A stretch of 22,618 nucleotides of DNA. Source: a virus (taxonomy: Duplodnaviria > Heunggongvirae > Uroviricota > Caudoviricetes). The translations under genes were made by a program, and so were the position numbers. The stretch covers positions 1 to 22,618 of IMG/VR virus record IMGVR_UViG_2700989162_000004. The stretch is one strand, 5' to 3'. Positions 10,492-22,592 of this stretch are shown in pieces. Below the pieces are notes generated by a model that saw only the letters and a program-made list of their open reading frames with translations, did not search any database and was not told the DNA's origin. How positions within the stretch are numbered: position 1 is the first letter of the stretch; every line of letters begins with the position of its first letter.

Positions 10492-10567
10492 TGGTGCTGG
10501 TTAACGGACTTGAACCGCTACCCATTCGCTTACAAGGCGACTGCTCTACCATTGGAGCTAAACCAGC
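10492..10567 (-). tRNA. tRNA-Thr (anticodon UGU), CCA encoded
   Basis: Minus strand GCTGGTT...GCTC-CAATGGTA-GAGC...loop CTTGTAA...GGTTCAAGTCC...AACCAGC-A-CCA; 7-bp acceptor stem, T-loop signature, anticodon loop CUUGUAA; one A-G mismatch in the anticodon stem. Confidence 0.7.
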
Positions 10568-10572
10568 ATGTT

Positions 10573-10647
10573 TGGCGGGACAGCGTGGACTCGAACCACG
10601 ATAAGAAGGTTAACAGCCTTCCGTAATGACCTTTATACGACTGACCC
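10573..10647 (-). tRNA. tRNA-Asn (anticodon GUU), CCA encoded
   Basis: Minus strand GGGTCAG...anticodon arm GAAGG-CTGTTAA-CCTTC...T-arm CGTGG-TTCGAGT-CCACG...CTGTCCC-G-CCA; one T-T mismatch in the acceptor stem and a weak D-stem. Confidence 0.65.
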
Positions 10648-13199: not shown

Positions 13200-13636
13200 G
13201 CTGCCCTGTCTCCCCATCTTGCTTTCCACTCCAGAGCCAGTCGCGCTTCGTCTGACCACTTAACGCCACGCTCTGTACCGAATGCCTGTATAAGCTCTAA
13301 TAACTCCGCAAATTCGCTTACACGCATCCTGCTGGTTGACTGGCCTATTACCACAAAGCCATTCCCGGCAAGGTTAGGAACAACGTCCTGCTGCTTTAAT
13401 GCTGCGGTAAACACACACTTCCAGCTTTCTGCATCCAGCCAGCGACCATGCCATTCAACCTGACGAGAGACGTCACCAAGGCAAGCCCAAAGCTTCCGAT
13501 TCTGGTCTAAGCTGCGGTTGCGCTCCTGAATGATCACTACGATTGGCTTGGTTGGGTCTGGAAGGATTTGCTGTACTGCGTGAATAGCGTTTTGCTGATG
13601 TGCTGGAGATCGAATTTCAAAGGTTAGTTTTTTCAT
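13196..13636 (-). CDS. ninB: NinB (Orf-family recombination mediator)
   Basis: 146-aa [37 protein letters not shown]..., essentially lambda NinB as I recall it. Confidence 0.9.
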
Positions 13637-13829
13637 GACTCCCCTCTCTAACAGATTTCAGGTTATTCCACTCCGTTACCGCACTGCGATAATTCGCGGC
13701 CGCCACAGCGGCATGGTTAGCGCAGTAGATTTGGCACCCGTTCTCCATGTCGAATATTGTCGGTGATTTTCCGCATTTACATTTTTTGGCATGCGGTGCG
13801 TCTGAACACATTCCGTTAACGGTGTCCAT
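13617..13829 (-). CDS. Small Cys-rich hypothetical protein
   Basis: 70-aa ORF with CKCGK...GCQIYC cysteine spacing; lies between the helicase terminator and ninB. Confidence 0.45.
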   Translation of the reverse strand: MDTVNGMCSDAPHAKKCKCGKSPTIFDMENGCQIYCANHAAVAAANYRSAVTEWNNLKSVREGSHEKTNL

Positions 13830-13856
13830 CAGAAGCCCCCTCGTTCTTAATCCAAT

Positions 13857-13883
13857 AAAAAAGGGCTACTGTGTAAATAGCCC
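13857..13883 (-). terminator. Intrinsic terminator after the helicase gene (tR2-like position)
   Basis: Minus strand GGGCTA-(9 nt)-TAGCCC followed by TTTTTTATTGG. Confidence 0.6.
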
Positions 13884-13912
13884 CTGTTATTATCTCAGTG
13901 ATGTAGATGTCA

Positions 13913-15364
13913 TCAGAATCCTCCTTTCTTCTTGGACTGCGGTTCCTCGCGTTCACGGCGGCGCATTTCAGCAGACTGTTGGTCTGTGTCATAAATAGCG
14001 CCATTTGCCTGAATGCAATACACCGTGCCGGTATTGCCATGACGATTGAGACGAAGGATTAGTTCAGTTTCACCAGGTGGAACACTGTCATCAAAAGCGC
14101 CTTCACGATGGATCCCGACCCAATAATCGCAATCCTGTTCAATCTGCCCTGTATCTCGTGAGTCACTTGGTAATGGGCGTTTATTGGTTCGGCTTTCCAG
14201 TGCGCGGTTAAGCTGTGTCAGAAGCACAACAACGCAATCAAGCTCTTTGGCAAGGTTCTTCAGTCCTTTGGTGATCATACCGTAAGCAAGGTCGTTGCGA
14301 TCGGCCTTCTCAGCGGTCATTAGTGTCAGGTAATCGACCAGAATCATGCCAACACATCCTTTTTCTCGCTTGATTCGACGGCTTTCGCTGACGATTTGAG
14401 CCAGAGATAATCCCGGCGTGTCGTCGATGTAAAGCATGTCGATTTCACTCAAGCGATTTGCTGTTTCTATCGCCCTGTTGAAGTCACCATCGTAATCACC
14501 CTGATAGCCGTCATCAGCGTCATTTGTCGCCGGAAGGTAAAAAATATTCGGGTTAACACCTGACTTCTGTCCTACCAGCTTTTCCAGTATCTGGTCGCCT
14601 GGCATTTCAAGACTGAACATCAGAGCGGGCTTTTTCTCATGCACTGCGCAGTTGATTGCCATCTGGCTGTATAGCGTCGTTTTCCCCATCTTAGGGCGAG
14701 CGCCAATGACGAACAGAGAGCCTTTCACCAGACCTTTCGGTGACAGCATCCTGTCCAGAGATGGGATCCCTGTGCTCATTCCTCGTTGTTCGCCTGACGG
14801 GTCAAATCGCTTCTCAAGGTCGCTAACCCAGTCTTCCATGACCTCACCAAATGAGCGAAGGCCGCGACGCGATCCGGTTTTTGCATGGTCTGTCAGTTGC
14901 GTGAAAATCGCCTGAATAGCTTCGTACTTCTGCGTTGCAGTCATTCCGTTGCGGGAATAGAGCAATTCCGTCGCTTCAGTCATGCGGTTTATGGCGTAGC
15001 GTTCCATTGCGGTTTCGCGAACCTGCATTGCATAGGCAACGATGTTTGCGGCGCTCGGCGTGTTCTTTGCGATCTCAGCGATATAAGCAAAACCGCCAAC
15101 AGACGCCGTTAACGATTTACGCTCCAGTTCATCGAAAAGCGTCAGGCCATCTACTGGCTTTTGCTCCCGGTGCATTCTGGTTATTTCTTCGAAAAGGATT
15201 TTGTGTGGTCGGCTGTAAAATGAATCGGGCTTCAGCATCGCCAGAACTTTCTGGACGCGCTCACTGCTGTCATCATCCAGAAGCAATCCACCAATCACCG
15301 CCTGCTCTGCCTCGATGCTATGGGGCGGCGCATAAAAATTATCGGTCATCGTGTTCACCCTCAC
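13913..15364 (-). CDS. Replicative DNA helicase, DnaB family
   Basis: 483-aa ORF with Walker A GARPKMGKT, Walker B ...ILVDYL and DnaB-like N-terminal SIEAEQAVIGGLL; the true start may be the Met 5 codons in (15349). Confidence 0.9.
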   Translation of the reverse strand: MRVNTMTDNFYAPPHSIEAEQAVIGGLLLDDDSSERVQKVLAMLKPDSFYSRPHKILFEEITRMHREQKPVDGLTLFDELERKSLTASVGGFAYIAEIAKNTPSAANIVAYAMQVRETAMERYAINRMTEATELLYSRNGMTATQKYEAIQAIFTQLTDHAKTGSRRGLRSFGEVMEDWVSDLEKRFDPSGEQRGMSTGIPSLDRMLSPKGLVKGSLFVIGARPKMGKTTLYSQMAINCAVHEKKPALMFSLEMPGDQILEKLVGQKSGVNPNIFYLPATNDADDGYQGDYDGDFNRAIETANRLSEIDMLYIDDTPGLSLAQIVSESRRIKREKGCVGMILVDYLTLMTAEKADRNDLAYGMITKGLKNLAKELDCVVVLLTQLNRALESRTNKRPLPSDSRDTGQIEQDCDYWVGIHREGAFDDSVPPGETELILRLNRHGNTGTVYCIQANGAIYDTDQQSAEMRRREREEPQSKKKGGF

Positions 15365-16238
15365 GAACTTTCAGGTAGGTATTATCGTTAAGCAGGAAAT
15401 CAAATCCCTTTTTGTGCCAGACGGTTCCGCGTTGATGGTTTGGGCGCTCTTCGAACATCCATCGGCAATTTTCGCCAACGTAGCTCAAATAATTTCTCCA
15501 GTCCTGCATCGTGAACCCATGCCCGTCAAGCTGGCGGGTTATCACTCCGGCTTTGCGCCAGAACGTTCGGATCTGGTTTTTACGCTTGTCATTCAGTGCG
15601 CGGATTCTTGGAGCTTCAGGAAGGATTTCGTGGTAAGCATCGACAACATCCTGACAGCTGACGGAAGGTTTTTTCTTGTCAGACTTTTTGTCTGCTGTGG
15701 CACTCTCTAATACGTCAGTATTAGAGATAATATTATTATATTCTTTATCTGTGGTAATTTGCTGGTAATCTGCTGGTACAGCATTGCTTACAGGCATTGG
15801 TATTGCTGGCTTTGAGGTGGTAATTTGCTGGTAATCTGCTGGTACAAAATTTGACTGATAATCGTCATATTTCTCTACTGAGAAAACTGAGAATTTACCG
15901 TGTGAAACCCAGTCAATCATGCCGAGTTTTTTGAACTTTCTAAGCAGGTACTGAACGCGATCTGGTTTGAGTCCTGTTTCAAACGCCAGAGAGTTTCTAC
16001 CGCCAAGTAGCTTCCCTCTGCCTACCAGAATTTCTCCTGCGTCAGTCATTACATACTCAGGCGTATGCTTTGCTTTGAGGATTAAGTGAACCCACAGATG
16101 CGCTGCTTCTGCATCCTTGTAAAACGGCACATCCATAATTTTACGGTGCAGCAAGGCATACCCCTTACCGCTGCTTTGATGCGGTTGTTGTAGCCTTCTG
16201 GCCTCTCTGGCTTCGGCTAGATTAGATATGTTACTCAT
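15339..16238 (-). CDS. Replication initiator, lambda O-like replisome organiser
   Basis: 299-aa ORF directly upstream of the helicase gene; iterons and AT-rich block inside the gene, as for ori-lambda within O; contains the duplicated peptide [10 protein letters not shown]. Confidence 0.7.
15751..15846. repeat. Origin-like iterons inside the initiator gene
   Basis: Two exact 30-bp copies of GTGGTAATTTGCTGGTAATCTGCTGGTACA (15751-15780 and 15817-15846), each holding two overlapping 13-bp units GGTAAT(T/C)TGCTGG; AT-rich block ATAATATTATTATATTCTTTATCT immediately adjacent at 15727-15750. Confidence 0.7.
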
Positions 16239-16377
16239 GACCTTTCTCCTTCTGCATCAGCTTCACTTTTTCCAACTCAGCCCGGAATCGACCAGGCTGC
16301 TTGAAGCTGGACAGGAAGCGATCACGTAGTATGTGTTTGTGAATTTTGTCCTGGTAAGGACTGAGTTGTTTTGTCAT
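16231..16377 (-). CDS. Small ORF between cII-like and initiator genes (P22 orf48 position)
   Basis: Manual translation [48 protein letters not shown] (48 aa); stop overlaps the initiator start. Confidence 0.5.
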
Positions 16378-16409
16378 AATTACTCCTGTGGATTGATCCA
16401 GTAATTCCC

Positions 16410-16706
16410 TCAGAATTGCATATCAATTTGCTTAAAATCCTCGGTGGCGGCCGGGGATTTTTTCTTTGTGATTTCATCAAGCGCATACTTAAAAGCCCTG
16501 CTAATCGGACTGATGTCTGATGCCATTCCGAAAGCACACAAGACCGAAGCAATAAATCTCCAGTCCGTTCTGCTTATCTTCGATTCATGACAGCCAATCA
16601 TCTTTGCCAGACCGCGCTGGGTAAGCGTTGACAGGTTGATGAGTAAATCAGTTTCAGCGCGATCAATTTCTCGCTGTGTTGGCTTGCTGTAGCTTGCTTG
16701 TGCCAT
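16410..16706 (-). CDS. cII: CII-like transcriptional activator (P22 c1 position)
   Basis: 98-aa ORF; helix-turn-helix region ...[18 protein letters not shown]... and KKSPAATE...QIDMQF C-terminus resembling lambda CII from memory. Confidence 0.8.
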
Positions 16707-16774
16707 TTGTTAATTTTCCTATATTGATATTGAGTTATAGCGGCACACCCAATGGATTTGCCGCTGATGTTTGC

Positions 16775-16814
16775 TCACCCGGTTAGAGGTGAAAGGCCAG
16801 AACTGTTAAAGAGC
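16775..16814 (-). promoter_or_regulatory. nutR: boxA plus boxB hairpin
   Basis: Minus strand boxA TGCTCTTTAACA (16804-16814) followed by a hairpin with CTAACC in the loop (16775-16792); lies between cro and cII-like. Confidence 0.6.
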
Positions 16815-16821
16815 AATTTGC

Positions 16822-17007
16822 TTATGCCGCTTGGCGGTAAGCACTTTCTTGATACTTCAGGGCGCCAGCTGTAACGATTTCCAATCGATAGGCGTCTTTC
16901 TCTGGGATAACTTCTTTCCACTGAGAGACTGCTGCATCGCTAATGCCTAGTGCTTTAGCAACAGCACGCTGGGTTCCGAAGTGGTCAATAACATCTTTTT
17001 TGTACAT
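16822..17007 (-). CDS. cro: Cro repressor, P22-type
   Basis: 61-aa ORF MYKKDVIDHFGTQRAVAKALGISDAAVSQWKE..., essentially P22 Cro as I recall it. Confidence 0.9.
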   Translation of the reverse strand: MYKKDVIDHFGTQRAVAKALGISDAAVSQWKEVIPEKDAYRLEIVTAGALKYQESAYRQAA

Positions 17008-17087
17008 AGACTCGCTCCGAAATTAAAGAACACTTAAATTATCCACCAAAGGAATCTTAAGTCAAGTTTATTTAAGATGTCTTAACT
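17008..17087. promoter_or_regulatory. Divergent OR operator / pR-pRM region
   Basis: 80-bp gap between divergent cro and c2; holds TTAAGA..TCTTAA-type inverted repeats, e.g. ATTTAAGATGTCTTAACT at about 17063-17080. Confidence 0.65.
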
Positions 17088-17738
17088 ATGAATACACAAC
17101 TGATGGGTGAGCGTATTCGCGCTCGCAGAAAAGAACTCAAGATTAGGCAGGCTGCCCTTGGCAAGATGGTTGGCGTGTCTAATGTTGCTATTTCCCAATG
17201 GGAGCGATCTGAAACTGAGCCCAATGGCGAAAACCTATTGGCCTTAGCCAAGGCTTTGCAGTGCTCCCCTGATTACCTGTTGAAAGGAGAGGATAGTCTT
17301 TCAAACATTGCCTATCACAGCAGGCATGATCCAAGAGGTTCGTATCCTCTAATTAGTTGGGTAAGCGCAGGATGTTGGATGGAAGCTGTAGAGCCATATC
17401 ATAGGCGTGCAATAGATAACTGGTACGACACAACGGTAGATTGTTCTGAAGACTCTTTTTGGCTCGACGTTAAAGGCGATTCAATGACTGCCCCGGCAGG
17501 ACTGAGTATTCCTGAGGGGATGATTATTCTCGTCGACCCAGAAGTCGAACCACGTAATGGAAAGTTGGTAGTCGCCAAACTTGAAGGAGAAAACGAGGCG
17601 ACATTCAAAAAGTTAGTTATTGATGCCGGTAGAAAATTCCTGAAACCACTCAATCCACAATACCCAATGATTGAAATCAATGGGAACTGTAAAATCATTG
17701 GCGTTGTCGTTGATGCCAAGCTAGCAAACCTTCCTTAA
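17088..17738 (+). CDS. c2: Prophage repressor, P22 c2-type (LexA-like self-cleaving)
   Basis: 216-aa ORF MNTQLMGERIRARRKELKIRQAALGKMVGVSNVAISQWERSE..., near-identical to P22 C2 as I recall it; HTH N-domain and S24 peptidase-like C-domain. Confidence 0.95.
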   Translation: MNTQLMGERIRARRKELKIRQAALGKMVGVSNVAISQWERSETEPNGENLLALAKALQCSPDYLLKGEDSLSNIAYHSRHDPRGSYPLISWVSAGCWMEAVEPYHRRAIDNWYDTTVDCSEDSFWLDVKGDSMTAPAGLSIPEGMIILVDPEVEPRNGKLVVAKLEGENEATFKKLVIDAGRKFLKPLNPQYPMIEINGNCKIIGVVVDAKLANLP

Positions 17739-17758
17739 GGGGCTTTCGCCCCTTTTTT
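17738..17758 (+). terminator. Intrinsic terminator immediately after c2
   Basis: AGGGGC-TTTC-GCCCCT followed by TTTTTTAT. Confidence 0.65.
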
Positions 17759-17827
17759 ATTTCCCGTTAAAAATCAAAGACAAACTAAATTCACGCCCAT
17801 AAAATTAAGTTTTCTTCAAAAATGCAC

Positions 17828-17856
17828 TTGACCAATAAATTAAGAAGTCTTAAATT
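17828..17856 (+). promoter_or_regulatory. pL-like promoter overlapping an OL operator
   Basis: TTGACC-(17 nt)-TAAATT; the spacer and -10 contain the operator-like inverted repeat AATTAAGAAGTCTTAAATT. Confidence 0.55.
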
Positions 17857-17902
17857 TAAGCCATCAGCAGGACGCTGGAAGCCAAACGGAACAGATTGGC
17901 AG

Positions 17903-17942
17903 GCTCTTTAACATCGACGGACTCTCAACCTAACCGTTGAGA
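17903..17942 (+). promoter_or_regulatory. nutL: boxA plus boxB hairpin
   Basis: boxA GCTCTTTAACA (17903-17913), then hairpin TCTCAAC-CTAACC-GTTGAGA (17923-17942); loop sequence shared with the nutR hairpin. Confidence 0.65.
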
Positions 17943-18052
17943 CCAGAACTTGAGTGGTTTTGGGGATGGCGCGAATTGCAGCTGCAAGACAGCGATCGAG
18001 AAGATAAGCACCTCGACGCGTCATGCGCCAAAGCCACTTAAAGGAGACCATC

Positions 18053-18358
18053 ATGGTAACCATTGTCTGGAAAGAATCCAAAGGTACGGCAAAAAGCCGC
18101 TACAAAGCTCGCAGAGCAGAACTTATTGCCGAGCGACGCAGTAATGAAGCACTGGCGCGAAAAATTGCGCTAAAGCTCTCTGGTTGCGTCAGAGCAGACA
18201 AAGCAGCATCGCTAGGATGCCTTTGCTGCAAGAAGAAAGAAGAAGTCGTTCGAAAAAATAGAAGTATTTATTACAAAGATTCAAACCCATTAGGAAACAA
18301 AATACATGCAGTCCAAAAAATAAAATTGTACAGTAAACTACCGTACGGTGCTTATTGA
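18053..18358 (+). CDS. N: Antiterminator N, phage-21-type arginine-rich motif
   Basis: From the internal Met: MVTIVWKESKGTAKSRYKARRAELIAERR...; GTAKSRYKARRAELIAERR matches the phage 21 N arginine-rich motif as I recall it; AGGAG Shine-Dalgarno; the ORF-track start at 18023 is probably too far upstream; C-terminal half AT-rich. Confidence 0.75.
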   Translation: MVTIVWKESKGTAKSRYKARRAELIAERRSNEALARKIALKLSGCVRADKAASLGCLCCKKKEEVVRKNRSIYYKDSNPLGNKIHAVQKIKLYSKLPYGAY

Positions 18359-18360
18359 GT

Positions 18361-18699
18361 ATGCTTATGGTGAAAAAGACTATTTATGTTAATCCTGACC
18401 GCGGACAAAACAGAAAAGTATCTGATAGAGGTCTTACATCTCGAGACAGGAGGAGAATAGCGAGATGGGAAAAAAGGATAGCATATGCATTAAAAAACGG
18501 TGTAACACCTGGATTTAATGCTATAGATGATGGCCCTGAATATAAGATTAATGAAGACCCAATGGACAAAGTTGACAAAGCATTAGCAACACCATTTCCT
18601 CGCGATGTCGAAAAAATTGAAGATGAAAAATATGAGGATGTAATGCACAGAGTTGTTAATCACGCTCACCAACGAAATCCAAATAAAAAATGGTCATAG
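18361..18699 (+). CDS. Hypothetical protein after N, AT-rich
   Basis: ORF overlaps or abuts the N stop (the track uses TTG at 18355; first ATG is 18361); basic N-terminus, acidic C-terminus; followed directly by an intrinsic terminator. Confidence 0.5.
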   Translation: MLMVKKTIYVNPDRGQNRKVSDRGLTSRDRRRIARWEKRIAYALKNGVTPGFNAIDDGPEYKINEDPMDKVDKALATPFPRDVEKIEDEKYEDVMHRVVNHAHQRNPNKKWS

Positions 18700-18719
18700 C
18701 CCACTTCGGTGGGTTTTTT
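18700..18719 (+). terminator. Intrinsic terminator (tL1-like)
   Basis: CCCACC-GAAG-GGTGGG type hairpin (cccacttcggtggg) followed by TTTTTT. Confidence 0.7.
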
Positions 18720-18832
18720 ATTGTCTGAACAAACCTAATTTACTACCGCAAGCCACGCAGTGAAATGGGTGTGACTTGTGTTGGTCGCCAGAAAATGAAA
18801 TTAGGCAGCAAACCACTTATTTGAGGTGATAT

Positions 18833-18919
18833 ATGGAAGAAGAATTTGAAGAGTTCGAAGAGCATCCTCAGGATGTGATGGAACAATACCAGGACTATCC
18901 GTATGACTACGACTATTGA
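18833..18919 (+). CDS. Candidate 28-aa highly acidic peptide
   Basis: ATG preceded by GAGGTG at a 7-nt spacing; MEEEFEEFEEHPQDVMEQYQDYPYDYDY; bracketed by intrinsic terminators. Confidence 0.35.
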   Translation: MEEEFEEFEEHPQDVMEQYQDYPYDYDY

Positions 18920-18991
18920 TAAAAATCAATGGTGTGGACAATACGAACGACGGCAATGATTTCCAGAGAACTTGGTAAACAGAACAACAAG

Positions 18992-19017
18992 GCTGCCTAA
19001 TGGCAGCTTTTATTTTT
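18992..19017 (+). terminator. Intrinsic terminator
   Basis: GCTGCC-TAAT-GGCAGC followed by TTTTATTTTT. Confidence 0.65.
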
Positions 19018-19046
19018 GCCATAAAAAACAGAATAAACACTGCTCT

Positions 19047-19074
19047 GTGTATTCATTCCAACGAGTGAATACAC
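19047..19074. other. Perfect 9-bp inverted repeat with 10-nt loop
   Basis: GTGTATTCA-TTCCAACGAG-TGAATACAC; no U-tract after it; intergenic. Confidence 0.4.
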
Positions 19075-19136
19075 GGAGCAATGTCGCTCGTAACTAAACA
19101 GGAGCCGACTTGTTCTGATTATTGGAAATCTTCTTT

Positions 19137-19162
19137 GCCCTCCAGTGTGAGGGCGATTTTTT
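19137..19162 (+). terminator. Intrinsic terminator-like hairpin upstream of the 122-aa gene
   Basis: GCCCTC-CAGTGT-GAGGGC then GA and TTTTTT. Confidence 0.55.
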
Positions 19163-19182
19163 ATCTATGAGGATATGAATAG

Positions 19183-19551
19183 ATGTCAAACATCAAAAAA
19201 TACATCATTGATTACGACTGGAAAGCATCAATAGAAATTGAAATCGACCATGACGTAATGACAGAGGAAAAACTTCACCAGATTAATAATTTCTGGTCAG
19301 ACTCTGAACACCGACTCAATAAACACGGCTCTGTATTAAATGCTGTATTAATCATGCTGGCGCAACATGCTCTGCTTATAGCAATTTCAAGCGACTTAAA
19401 TGCATATGGTGTTGTGTGTGAGTTCGACTGGAATGATGGAAATGGTCAGGAAGGATGGCCTCCAATGGATGGTAGCGAAGGAATAAGAATTACCGATATC
19501 GATACATCAGGAATATTTGATTCAGATGATATGACTATCAAAGCCGTCTGA
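19183..19551 (+). CDS. Hypothetical strongly acidic protein in the early-left operon
   Basis: 122-aa ORF with GAGGA Shine-Dalgarno; many D/E and few K/R; occupies the ral/sieB-equivalent position between N and cIII. Confidence 0.6.
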   Translation: MSNIKKYIIDYDWKASIEIEIDHDVMTEEKLHQINNFWSDSEHRLNKHGSVLNAVLIMLAQHALLIAISSDLNAYGVVCEFDWNDGNGQEGWPPMDGSEGIRITDIDTSGIFDSDDMTIKAV

Positions 19552-19627
19552 GCGCTGCGTTACCGCATACCAATAACGCTTCACTCGAGGCGTTTTTCGT
19601 TATGCAATAAAACAGAAGGAGCATCCT

Positions 19628-19798
19628 ATGCAACAGTTCGCTATTGCAGGGGCGGCATCGGTTCGCCCTTTCAACCCGATTTTATCGGTACAGCATTCAC
19701 GAAAAAACATTTTAACCGGAGCAGACTTTAAACAACCAAGAATGAAAAGTTTGCTCGAAAAGCTTTGGGATATTTTGAAACAACAAGGCCGTCCATGA
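19628..19798 (+). CDS. cIII: CIII-like protein (absent from the ORF track, below its length cutoff)
   Basis: Manual translation MQQFAIAGAASVRPFNPILSVQHSRKNILTGADFKQPRMKSLLEKLWDILKQQGRP (56 aa); MQ-AIAG N-terminus and L-DIL-Q-G-P C-terminus resemble lambda CIII from memory; AAGGAG Shine-Dalgarno. Confidence 0.65.
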   Translation: MQQFAIAGAASVRPFNPILSVQHSRKNILTGADFKQPRMKSLLEKLWDILKQQGRP

Positions 19799-19953
19799 GT
19801 TTTACAGATAACTGGTCAGACGAAGAATTCATTCGTCATATGAAAGAATTAATCGGTAACGAAGGAGATATTCATGTCACTTGCAACCACAGTGAAGGAG
19901 AGCAGGTTACAGAGACGCATGTACACGCAGAAAGCTCTCTGGTATCGCCATAA
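19795..19953 (+). CDS. Small hypothetical protein at the kil-equivalent position
   Basis: 52-aa ORF MSFTDNWSDEEF... whose ATG overlaps the cIII stop (ATGA). Confidence 0.45.
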   Translation: MSFTDNWSDEEFIRHMKELIGNEGDIHVTCNHSEGEQVTETHVHAESSLVSP

Positions 19954-20054
19954 TGGCGACCGCGAAGGAATGCGGGTATGCCTTAATTTGTCCCGAGTCG
20001 AAGTATTAAATCAGCGTTATTTTCTTGGGCCGTGTCCATTCTGAGATCAAACAT

Positions 20055-20660
20055 ATGAGCAAAGAATTTTATGCAAGGCTGGCAGCCATTCAGGAGAATC
20101 TGAACGCGCCAAAGAATCAGTACAACTCATTCGGTAAATATAAATACAGAAGCTGCGAAGACATTCTTGAAGGCGTTAAGCCGTTACTGAATGGCCTGTT
20201 TTTATCAATCAGCGATGAAGTTGTGTTGATTGGTGATCGGTATTACGTGAAAGCAACGGCAACTATTACTGATGGCGAAAACAGTCATACAGCAACCGCT
20301 CTTGCACGAGAGGAAGAAAGCAAGAAAGGAATGGATTCTGCACAAGTTACGGGAGCTACAAGCTCTTATGCACGCAAGTATTGCCTCAATGGTTTGTTCG
20401 GCATTGATGATGCGAAAGATGCAGATACCGACGAGCATAAACATCAGCAGAACGCAGCAGCAAAGCAATCAAAACCATCACCTACACCTGAACAGGTTCT
20501 AAAAGCATTCACTGACGCAGCATTGCAGAAAAACACCGTGGAAGAGCTTAAACAGGCGTTCGCCAAAGCGTGGAAGATGCTCGAAGGCACACCGGAGCAG
20601 CACAAAGCGCAGGACGTTTACAACATCAGACGAGACGAATTAGAAGGAGCGGCTGCTTAA
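20055..20660 (+). CDS. erf: Erf single-strand annealing recombinase (P22 Erf-like)
   Basis: From the internal Met: MSKEFYARLAAIQENLNAPKNQYNSFGKYKYRSCEDILEGVKP..., close to P22 Erf from memory; the ORF-track start at 20025 is probably too far upstream. Confidence 0.9.
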   Translation: MSKEFYARLAAIQENLNAPKNQYNSFGKYKYRSCEDILEGVKPLLNGLFLSISDEVVLIGDRYYVKATATITDGENSHTATALAREEESKKGMDSAQVTGATSSYARKYCLNGLFGIDDAKDADTDEHKHQQNAAAKQSKPSPTPEQVLKAFTDAALQKNTVEELKQAFAKAWKMLEGTPEQHKAQDVYNIRRDELEGAAA

Positions 20661-21043
20661 TGGCACATTCGATTACTGTAAGACTAAACAAGCCCGCAAG
20701 AGAGTTTCAGGCCGGGGAAAATATCGGATTCAACATCCGTGCTGGCGTTCAGTATTACGATCGCCAGACAAAAAAGAAAGAATGGACAAACTACAGCGCC
20801 GTTGTATTTGCCAAGCCGGGAGCGCAAGCGGATTACTACCGTAGTGTTCTTGTTGAAGGTGGCATTGTAGAAATTACCGGAGAAAACATCAGGGTTGATG
20901 TTTATCAGGGGCAAAATGGTCAATCAATCACTCTTGAATTACTGAATGCAAAGATTGGATTTGCAACCTCAGGAAACAGCCAACAGCAGCAAAGTAGCAA
21001 TCATCAAAATCATCCTGAATACGACGATTCAATTCCCTTCTAA
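20660..21043 (+). CDS. ssb: Single-stranded DNA-binding protein (phage SSB)
   Basis: 127-aa ORF with ATG overlapping the erf stop and AGGAG upstream; Q-rich linker and C-terminal tail ...YDDSIPF like the E. coli SSB DDDIPF tail. Confidence 0.7.
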   Translation: MAHSITVRLNKPAREFQAGENIGFNIRAGVQYYDRQTKKKEWTNYSAVVFAKPGAQADYYRSVLVEGGIVEITGENIRVDVYQGQNGQSITLELLNAKIGFATSGNSQQQQSSNHQNHPEYDDSIPF

Positions 21044-21066
21044 AGTAGCAACATAAGGATTCCATT

Positions 21067-21360
21067 ATGCCAGCGCCTCTGTATGGTGCGGATGCCCCGC
21101 GCCGCTGTTCCGGCAATTCCGTATCGGAGGTGCTGGATAAATTCAGAAAAAACTACGATCGGATAATGTCGCTACCGCAGGAAACGAAAGAGGAAAAGGA
21201 ATTTCGCCACTGTATATGGCTTGCAGAGAAAGAAGAACGCGAGCGAATTTACCAGACATCAATCCGACCATTCCGCAAAGCCACATATACCCACTTCCCT
21301 GAAATTGACCCGCGCCTGCGTAATTACCGCTCACGCTATGGCGCTATCAGTAATGACTGA
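21067..21360 (+). CDS. abc2: Abc2-like anti-RecBCD protein (tentative)
   Basis: 97-aa [34 protein letters not shown]...; same length as P22 Abc2 as I recall it and correct position after erf. Confidence 0.5.
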
Positions 21361-21370
21361 GGAATTTACC

Positions 21371-21535
21371 ATGAGAGGACTTGCATACAACCCCGGCATT
21401 CTTCCGGCAGAAATGATTATTCGCCAACGCGTAAAGCCAATGCCATCGAGAGAGGAATTGCTTAAGAGAAATTCTTTTCCATCAGTGAATCAAAACAAGT
21501 ATCTGAATGCGATGTTGCGGAGTGGGAAGAAATGA
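21371..21535 (+). CDS. Small hypothetical protein
   Basis: 54-aa ORF from the Met of [15 protein letters not shown]...; stop overlaps the next start (ATGA). Confidence 0.4.
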
Positions 21536-22014
21536 AACAAATGACACTAATTGAGATGGATGGTTTTCTGAAAGGTAAATGCATCCCACGAGATTTAAAG
21601 GTTAACGAAACAAACGCTGAATATCTTGTGCGTAAGTTCGGTGAACTTGAATCAAAACTAGAAACGGCGTTGCGGGAGTGTCGTTCTGCTGGAATCACGA
21701 TTGATAACCTTGAGGCTAAATGCGCGAAGATGGCTGCTGAAAATACCTCACTTAAGCAATCTGAGAAGGAATTTAATGACTTTTGTCGTGAGGAGTTTAG
21801 CGAATGGGAAGATGATGTTACTGAAACTCCAGCCACCGATGCTTTCCTGGCTGAAGTACGGGCGCAGGGGGTAGAGATGTACGCAGATAACCTCGACAAC
21901 GGAGCAGACGACGCAGAACGAGGTGGTTTTGATTATGCCGTTAAGTTTCTACGCAGTGAAGCATCTAGTGTACGTTTGTTCGCCGACCAGCTTCGCAAAG
22001 GAGGCAACCAGTGA
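21532..22014 (+). CDS. Hypothetical acidic protein
   Basis: 160-aa ORF, translationally coupled on both sides; no motif I recognise. Confidence 0.55.
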
Positions 22015-22592
22015 GCAAGATTGACTATCAGGCACTGCGTGAGGCGGCAGAAAAAGCAACGTGTGGTGAGTGGTCGCTCGAATATGGAGAGGGCCAATTT
22101 GATGGTGATGATGCGCTAATTCATCGTGACGTTGTTGGATATCTTCCCATTTGCAGAATTGAAGGAGCGCATCCTGAAAGCGGTTTCGATGAAGATTTCC
22201 AAATAGAACAGCAGGCCAATGCTGAATTCATCGCCGCAGCCAATCCAGCTACCGTCTTGGCGCTGCTGGATGAGCTGGAAAGAAACCAGCAATACATCAA
22301 ACGCCGTGACCAGGAGAACGAGGAGATTGCGTTAACGGTAGGGAAGCTGCGTGTTGAGCTGGAAGGCAAAGACAAGCTGATTGCAGAGCTTGGAAAACAA
22401 TGCGCCGAATGGGAGCGAAAAGCATTAAGCAACTTTGAAGAGTGTGCTGCGATGGCTGAACGTATCGAAGAGTTGCAGACAAAATCTGCACCAGATTCGT
22501 TTGGCATCATCGGTGAAAATATTCGAACACAGGATAATCGAATAACGTCAGTGGATTTGCCCCTATATTTCCAGACATCTGTTATCACTTAA
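22011..22592 (+). CDS. Ead/Ea22-like protein
   Basis: 193-aa ORF starting [22 protein letters not shown]..., typical of the prophage Ead/Ea22-like family as I recall it; GTG start preceded by AGGAGG and overlapping the upstream stop. Confidence 0.65.
   Translation: MSKIDYQALREAAEKATCGEWSLEYGEGQFDGDDALIHRDVVGYLPICRIEGAHPESGFDEDFQIEQQANAEFIAAANPATVLALLDELERNQQYIKRRDQENEEIALTVGKLRVELEGKDKLIAELGKQCAEWERKALSNFEECAAMAERIEELQTKSAPDSFGIIGENIRTQDNRITSVDLPLYFQTSVIT

Follow-up and report, generated by a model that had tools for sequence, protein, structure and literature searches.

The region described here spans positions 18361-19551 of a 22,618-nucleotide stretch of Caudoviricetes DNA (IMG/VR record IMGVR_UViG_2700989162_000004; this whole stretch is referred to as the window) and lies directly after the antiterminator gene N. 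With a probability of about 0.9, it is the kind of early-left accessory region that is usual in a lambda-like prophage of E. coli, a mosaic of five described lambdoid modules that are all read from PL in the rightward direction (+ strand) and whose parts are known from lambda and HK022. Each element has a near-identical published counterpart in one of these two phages and is already known. The main value of the analysis is a correct annotation: the lambda-exclusion gene nun and the replication-boosting small RNA (sRNA) PreS are present, and the restriction-alleviation gene ral has been lost. Automated pipelines label nun as hypothetical and overlook both PreS and the loss of ral. Of interest to specialists are the evidence for protein-level selection on the small gene orf28, a recurrent deletion allele of ral and a conserved stem-loop at the 5' end of PreS. 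The sequence identities, the structures, the boundaries of insertions and deletions and the coding-type variation of orf28 were demonstrated directly.

In the arrangement that we propose, the first module is the nun cassette (18241-18727), which carries its own terminator and has been inserted in the 3' end of a phage-21-type N. The second is the lambda orf28-ral pair, with orf28 intact and ral dead, and the third a terminator hairpin after ral. The fourth comprises a 17-bp stem-loop, the 88-nt PreS (also named LPR1) and the terminator tL2a, and the fifth is ea10, which encodes an abundant acidic early protein. A first reading of the letters alone, hereafter the original prediction, had recognized an N-proximal early-left accessory region of the kind in which lambdoid phages carry ral and sieB-type genes, and this is borne out. 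All features that it listed are found where it placed them, but the list was incomplete, since it missed the ral pseudogene, a relic of the N 3' end and the PreS sRNA that ends at the third of its terminators.

A nun cassette inserted in the 3' end of N

The open reading frame (ORF) of 112 amino acids directly after N (18361-18699) is AT-rich, with 37% GC versus 47% for the window. The ATG that matches crystallised Nun is located at 18367, giving a product of 110 amino acids, and 18367-18699 (+) is therefore annotated as nun, the gene for an HK022-type transcription-arrest and lambda-exclusion factor. The product is identical at 108 of 109 positions to chain N of PDB entry 6ALG (6alg_N; E 2.5e-71), an arrest complex solved by cryo-electron microscopy, and it matches phrog_5632, 'Nun-like transcription termination factor', at 4.5e-71 over 112/112 positions. 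The annotated Nun proteins of HK022, mEp235, mEpX1 and O276 are 99.1% identical to it. Its predicted arginine-rich motif is the same in 26/26 residues as 1hji_B, a peptide solved on lambda boxB RNA, and its C-terminus (...VVNHAHQRNPNKKWS) is identical to that of 6alg_N, including H98, K106, K107 and W108, residues with a role in arrest (PMC5386594). Nun stops superinfection by lambda in that boxB of the nascent lambda nut RNA is bound and RNA polymerase is arrested (PMC5386594, PMC4124055). The original prediction had counted the 112-aa gene among its acidic anti-defence candidates, which does not hold, as the product is HK022 Nun, a basic protein (isoelectric point (pI) 9.7) and a prophage exclusion factor acting on lambda. 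The nutL site of the carrier phage, a boxA followed by a boxB at 17923-17942, has a boxB of the phage-21 type, and a search for a lambda-type boxB across the window found none, so the carrier's own N system should escape Nun. Exclusion of lambda with sparing of the carrier phage would thus be consistent with the sequence.

The gene arrived as part of a larger block. N (18053-18358, +; phrog_271 at 4e-30) is 79% identical to phage 21 N and has the same first 55 residues; it is of the phage-21 type over residues 1-74, and its C-terminal 27 residues have diverged. Over 17700-18275, the window matches phage 21 at 97%; the two align again from window position 18728, which corresponds to phage 21 position 1501, and phage 21 positions 1501-1521 match both edges (window 18255-18275 and 18728-18748). 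Relative to phage 21, N has thus received an insertion of 452 bp (18276-18727) within its 3' end. A stretch that begins 126 bp ahead of nun and extends through the terminator (18241-18716) is 96.8% identical to HK022, and it is this HK022-like block that gives N its diverged C-terminus. The left arm of the cassette (18241-18366, +; 30% GC) encodes the alternative end of N, and we take the same segment to hold the nun promoters in HK022. On the right, the cassette is closed by terminator 1 (18698-18721, +), a 7-bp GC-rich stem followed by a T-run (-10.3 kcal/mol, z -4.8), which falls inside the block shared with HK022. Just after this terminator, 18741-18824 (+) preserves what was once the 3' end of a phage-21-type N and is now non-functional; its translation, YYRKPRSEMGVTCVGRQKMKLGSKPLI followed by a stop, when compared with the C-terminus of phage 21 N, is the orphaned end of that protein, and the relic marks the right edge of the nun insertion.

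The literature on HK022 describes a constitutive promoter of its own for the nun cassette. A study by King et al. from 2000, cited in PMC5386594, is said to have located the nun promoters of HK022 just upstream of the gene, with transcripts that stop after nun. HK022 and the window share, at 96.8% identity, both the 126 bp that precede nun and the terminator that follows it. The original prediction had raised the possibility of an independently transcribed insert, and an HK022-like block with its own terminator inside N, together with the promoter from the HK022 literature, supports that idea for nun. Kapi1 is 98% identical over 17700-18825, and the order cro-cI-N-nun is common to Kapi1 and mEp235; since these are viable phages, the arrangement works. 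In the window, nun follows an intact phage-21-type N, as it does in Kapi1, mEp235 and PA28, whereas HK022 lacks N and uses put RNA instead.

The layout also resembles the sieB region of lambda, where N and orf28 are separated by an exclusion gene with its own terminator and, after it, a relic of the N 3' end, but the cargo in the window is nun and not sieB. We considered sieB as a candidate for the N-orf28 interval and rejected it, since what matches there is HK022 nun and not the gap between N and orf28 of lambda, and no sieB homology was seen in the interval. The lambda relic (TTTACTACCGCAA...CCACTATTTAA) is shorter and is found directly upstream of orf28, after sieB (about 1480-1520 of our lambda locus L001). 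Because N relics follow nun here and sieB in lambda, the comparison suggests that cassettes with exclusion genes are repeatedly inserted at the end of N.

PreS and the stem-loop at its 5' end

PreS, the 88-nt Hfq-dependent sRNA of the PL operon, is present at 19076-19163 (+), with the seed at approximately 19106-19125, and all 88 of its 88 nucleotides are identical to lambda, seed included. The primers published for cloning and in vitro transcription of PreS start with GAGCAATGTCGC and end with ...GATTTTTTA (bioRxiv 10.1101/2024.10.31.621285), and it is these ends that place the RNA at the above coordinates. In the same preprint, LPR1 sits between ral and ea10 and its terminator is tL2a (bioRxiv 10.1101/2024.10.31.621285). 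The RNA is approximately 88 nt long, with a processed form of approximately 68 nt, depends on Hfq and is confined to the lytic cycle, and in lambda it increases dnaN translation, decreases alaS and promotes phage DNA replication (bioRxiv 10.1101/2024.10.31.621285; review PMC12197685). The window copy is like lambda PreS in all 88 nt, in its position between ral and ea10 and in its terminator, and the locus differs from that of lambda by the deletion in the upstream ral. Binding of Hfq and regulation of dnaN and alaS by the window PreS may be expected by analogy with lambda. The 3' end of the RNA and its Hfq-binding tail are formed by terminator 3 (19135-19162, +), which is tL2a and consists of an 8-bp GC-rich stem followed by T6.

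A 'perfect 9-bp inverted repeat' in the original prediction is indeed present, but it is only the core of a larger structure, a stem-loop of 17 bp at 19042-19079 (+), which was found by folding and bounds the conserved PreS module on the left. The 5' end of PreS is located in the 3' arm of this stem-loop, and 19042-19165 as a whole folds at -49.5 kcal/mol (z -6.8). Homology with PA28 and the Stx1a phages begins exactly at 19042 despite different upstream genes, and in three viral contigs (L012, L070 and L004) a different stem sequence folds at the same position. The helix is a perfect 17 bp in the window, whereas that of lambda has one A/A mismatch. The stem-loop is not mentioned in the PreS preprint; we infer that it may act in the formation of the PreS 5' end. 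In HK022, IS903 is inserted in the PreS stem-loop, with a 9-bp duplication.

Taken together, these parts would work as follows. In the lysogen, Nun would be made from its own weak constitutive promoter, its arginine-rich motif would bind the boxB hairpin of lambda nut RNA, and its C-terminus would wedge into RNA polymerase, leading to arrest and to exclusion of superinfecting lambda; the carrier phage would escape because its own nut site is of the phage-21 type. After induction, transcription from PL would end at tL2a, the 5' end would be trimmed and Hfq-bound PreS released, which would raise dnaN translation, lower alaS expression and so help phage replication. N-modified polymerase would read through tL2a, so that the genes beyond are expressed. 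What Nun and PreS do, the promoter of nun and the read-through by N are all taken from the literature on near-identical sequences and would apply here by analogy.

A number of points weigh against this reading. A search of Rfam returned no family at the gathering threshold over the whole window, or at E<=10 over 18650-19650, where the matches were at chance level only; Rfam 15 is without a PreS family, and the sRNA assignment goes back to one preprint and a review. Nun carries a single substitution, S11R (6ALG numbering), outside the known functional segments. Scanning upstream of nun for a consensus sigma-70 promoter found none, even at 8/12 matches, so constitutive expression of nun would rest on homology with HK022.

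orf28 and the ral deletion allele

From 18808 onward, the window is approximately 95-97% identical to lambda, and the first gene in this part is orf28 (18833-18919, +), a hyper-acidic and aromatic-rich small ORF of 28 codons whose product, MEEEFEEFEEHPQDVMEQYQDYPYDYDY, contains 12 acidic residues, no Lys or Arg, and has a net charge of -12. The protein is identical to that of lambda orf28 (lambdap47; coding sequence 34271-34357) and matches phrog_16060 at 7e-19; in lambda, the gene is listed as hypothetical and non-essential. A strong Shine-Dalgarno sequence, GAGGTGA, lies upstream at 18823-18829. The orf28-ral module is thus built as in lambda, with the same orf28 protein, Shine-Dalgarno sequence and 17-nt overlap with the ral start. 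ORFs on the - strand, antisense to orf28 and ral (e.g., 18801-19040), were considered and rejected, as the homologous phage records, without exception, annotate + strand genes alone here.

Relatives of orf28 were collected by scanning viral contigs with a degenerate DNA pattern, which gave at least 120 matching stretches. The pattern matches listed, the lambdoid loci and the window together made up a comparison set of 124 copies, in which the identical peptide was found 108 times. Within nucleotides 36-69, 10 sites depart from the consensus in 3 or more sequences, and 9 of these 10 are third codon positions, where one third would be expected without coding constraint (binomial estimate, p ~4e-4). 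The recurrent changes, which lie in codons 12-23, are almost all synonymous, and in these 12 codons the majority of third positions vary. The pattern fixes the first 11 residues, so that a non-synonymous change there would not be visible, and in these 11 codons (18833-18865) none of the 124 sequences varied at the 10 synonymous positions that the pattern permits. The invariance of the 5' end suggests an extra constraint at the RNA level. In view of the third-position bias and the strong Shine-Dalgarno sequence, orf28 is probably translated.

The gene next to it has been destroyed. In the alignment to lambda and phage 21 ral, the ral pseudogene occupies 18903-19000 (+), its start overlapping the end of orf28 by 17 nt. 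Compared with lambda ral (lambdap46), the copy lacks 103 bp, an internal deletion between two CAAT repeats with a microhomology junction at 18939-18942, and the frame is shifted after codon 13. An intact ORF for the roughly 66-aa Ral was looked for, and what remains is an ORF of 18 codons ending at 18959. Because of this frameshift deletion, the 66-aa Ral cannot be made. ral is a Type I restriction-alleviation gene, and with the frameshift the only proven anti-restriction gene of the region is therefore inactive in this prophage. The same deletion is present in E. coli SC406 and in LR778143, and among the matches listed it was found in about a tenth of the orf28-bearing viral contigs, several IMG/VR contigs included. 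By these sequence matches, it is a circulating allele in E. coli prophages. The deletion also creates a 23-codon ORF (18929-19000) in which MVW is fused to the last 20 residues of Ral; the observations on this allele cover 18903-19000 of the window and 2600-2960 of L007.

The tight linkage with ral raises the question of whether orf28 might be a leader ORF only, the peptide having no function and translation merely feeding ribosomes to the overlapping ral start by translational coupling. The strong Shine-Dalgarno sequence is on orf28 and the ral ATG lies 17 nt inside its end, both genes co-occur in every contig among the matches listed, the Stx1a phages replace the two together, and the absence of synonymous variation in the first 11 codons could reflect a constraint on the RNA or on initiation. 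A pure leader would, however, not require conservation of the peptide, which is what the 108 identical copies and the mostly synonymous recurrent changes indicate. Moreover, orf28 stays intact where ral is destroyed, although such alleles are few and recent. We therefore regard a leader without peptide function as possible but rather unlikely.

Ea10, the anti-defence question and the stacked terminators

The last gene of the region is ea10 (19183-19551, +), approximately 97% identical to its lambda counterpart at the DNA level. It encodes the acidic early protein Ea10 of 122 amino acids (pI 4.4, net charge -14), a member of the DUF2528 family (Pfam PF10800 at 1.1e-46; score 158 bits, cutoff 22; the match extends over profile positions 1-104 of 104). 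Lambda Ea10 (P68658) is of equal length, its gene likewise lies upstream of cIII, and nothing material differs between the two. In lambda, ea10 is non-essential and its product is abundantly made. The old 'ssb' label on ea10 in lambda records is unverified. The AlphaFold model, based on 69 homologues, is confident (predicted local distance difference test (pLDDT) 95.7, predicted template modeling score (pTM) 0.87) and has an alpha/beta fold with a beta hairpin, four helices and a further strand. A sequence search of PDB with Ea10 found no relative, and a Foldseek comparison of the model with PDB gave no convincing match, DNA mimics included; the model faintly resembles the SPFH domains of HflK and HflC. 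No literature on the function of DUF2528 was found. Mu-like prophages (L128-L131, Salmonella and Oceanobacter contigs) have distant DUF2528 homologues, with 40-52% identity, in their early regions, where these lie between the gene for a MuB-like ATPase and the Mu Gam, GemA and Mor genes.

It could be argued that the orf28 micropeptide and Ea10 are undiscovered factors for host takeover or counter-defence and, separately, that the PreS stem-loop is a signal for the processing by which the sRNA is freed from the PL transcript. The peptide is hyper-acidic and rich in Tyr and Phe, Ea10 is abundant and shared with Mu-like phages, and ea10 neighbours cIII, the gene for an FtsH inhibitor, alongside which the faint likeness to HflK and HflC may be noted. 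We consider this combination quite doubtful. A run of PADLOC on Nun, orf28 and Ea10 gave no matches.

The more specific proposal in the original prediction was that the 28-aa and 122-aa acidic products are DNA-mimic anti-restriction or anti-defence factors, with their expression gated by the stacked terminators. Both products are indeed strongly acidic, with a net charge of -12 over 28 residues for orf28 and -14 over 122 for Ea10, their genes neighbour ral in a region known for host-modulating genes, and ral is always accompanied by orf28, which overlaps its start (among the matches listed). In addition, Ea10 is abundant and early, and neither gene is needed on a laboratory host that is poor in defences, as would fit accessory counter-defence. 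However, the 112-aa gene that was grouped with them encodes the basic Nun, terminator 3 is accounted for by PreS, and Ea10 has neither a sequence relative in PDB nor a family with a described function in the literature that we found. The original prediction had called for structure prediction of the 122-aa protein with DNA-mimic folds in mind, and the confident model matched no solved mimic; since DNA mimics are structurally diverse, this negative fold search only weakens the proposal. Nothing was found in support of a DNA-mimic or anti-defence role for either product, and we regard such a role as very unlikely.

The three terminators of the original prediction are real by both stem and T-run and by fold energy. 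A scan located hairpins at 18698-18715, 18989-19010 and 19135-19156, each followed by a T-run, and a fourth at 19575-19594; the first three fold at -10.3, -14.5 and approximately -17 kcal/mol, with z-scores of -3.7 to -4.8. Overall, the region contains 10 terminator-like sites, against 2.1 +/- 1.4 in shuffled sequences. Terminator 2 (18989-19016, +; 9-bp stem and T-run, -14.5 kcal/mol, z -3.7) lies just after the old ral stop. This post-ral hairpin is kept across alleles at approximately -14 kcal/mol through compensatory changes, whereas lambda's own is weak, at -6 kcal/mol. The fourth terminator-like hairpin (19575-19602, +), between ea10 and cIII, is conserved in lambda, phage 21, HK022, Kapi1 and PA28, and is probably another member of the tL2 cluster.

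The stack might be taken for merely redundant, N-sensitive attenuation of PL transcription without a product of its own. Five terminator-like hairpins lie on the + strand between cI and cIII, and the termination sites of the tL2 cluster, which N overrides, have been described from the 1980s onward. However, tL2a ends an RNA that was detected by northern blotting, is enriched with Hfq and acts on targets that were validated genetically. In HK022, Kapi1 and PA28, the 121-nt module stays conserved by itself even where the genes on either side differ, and terminator 1 belongs to the nun cassette and not to PL attenuation. Redundant attenuation is thus an improbable explanation, and although the stacked terminators are present as predicted, the third forms, with the inverted repeat, the PreS/LPR1 module and is not just an attenuator.

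The surroundings of 18361-19551 have the layout of the immunity and early-left region of a lambdoid phage, in + strand orientation. Upstream are cro (16822-17007, -), a P22/phage-21-type repressor gene (cI) with its terminator (17088-17738) and PL-like hexamers (17828-17856), which are followed by the nutL site described above. Downstream are a cIII-like gene, small Abc-like ORFs and erf. One IMG/VR viral contig (L102) shares 9.2 kb (13306-22516) with the window at 100% identity; it is probably the same source sequence and was therefore not counted as an independent observation. Elsewhere in the window, genes for tRNA-Thr(tgt) and tRNA-Asn(gtt) lie side by side within phage sequence at 10492-10647 (-).

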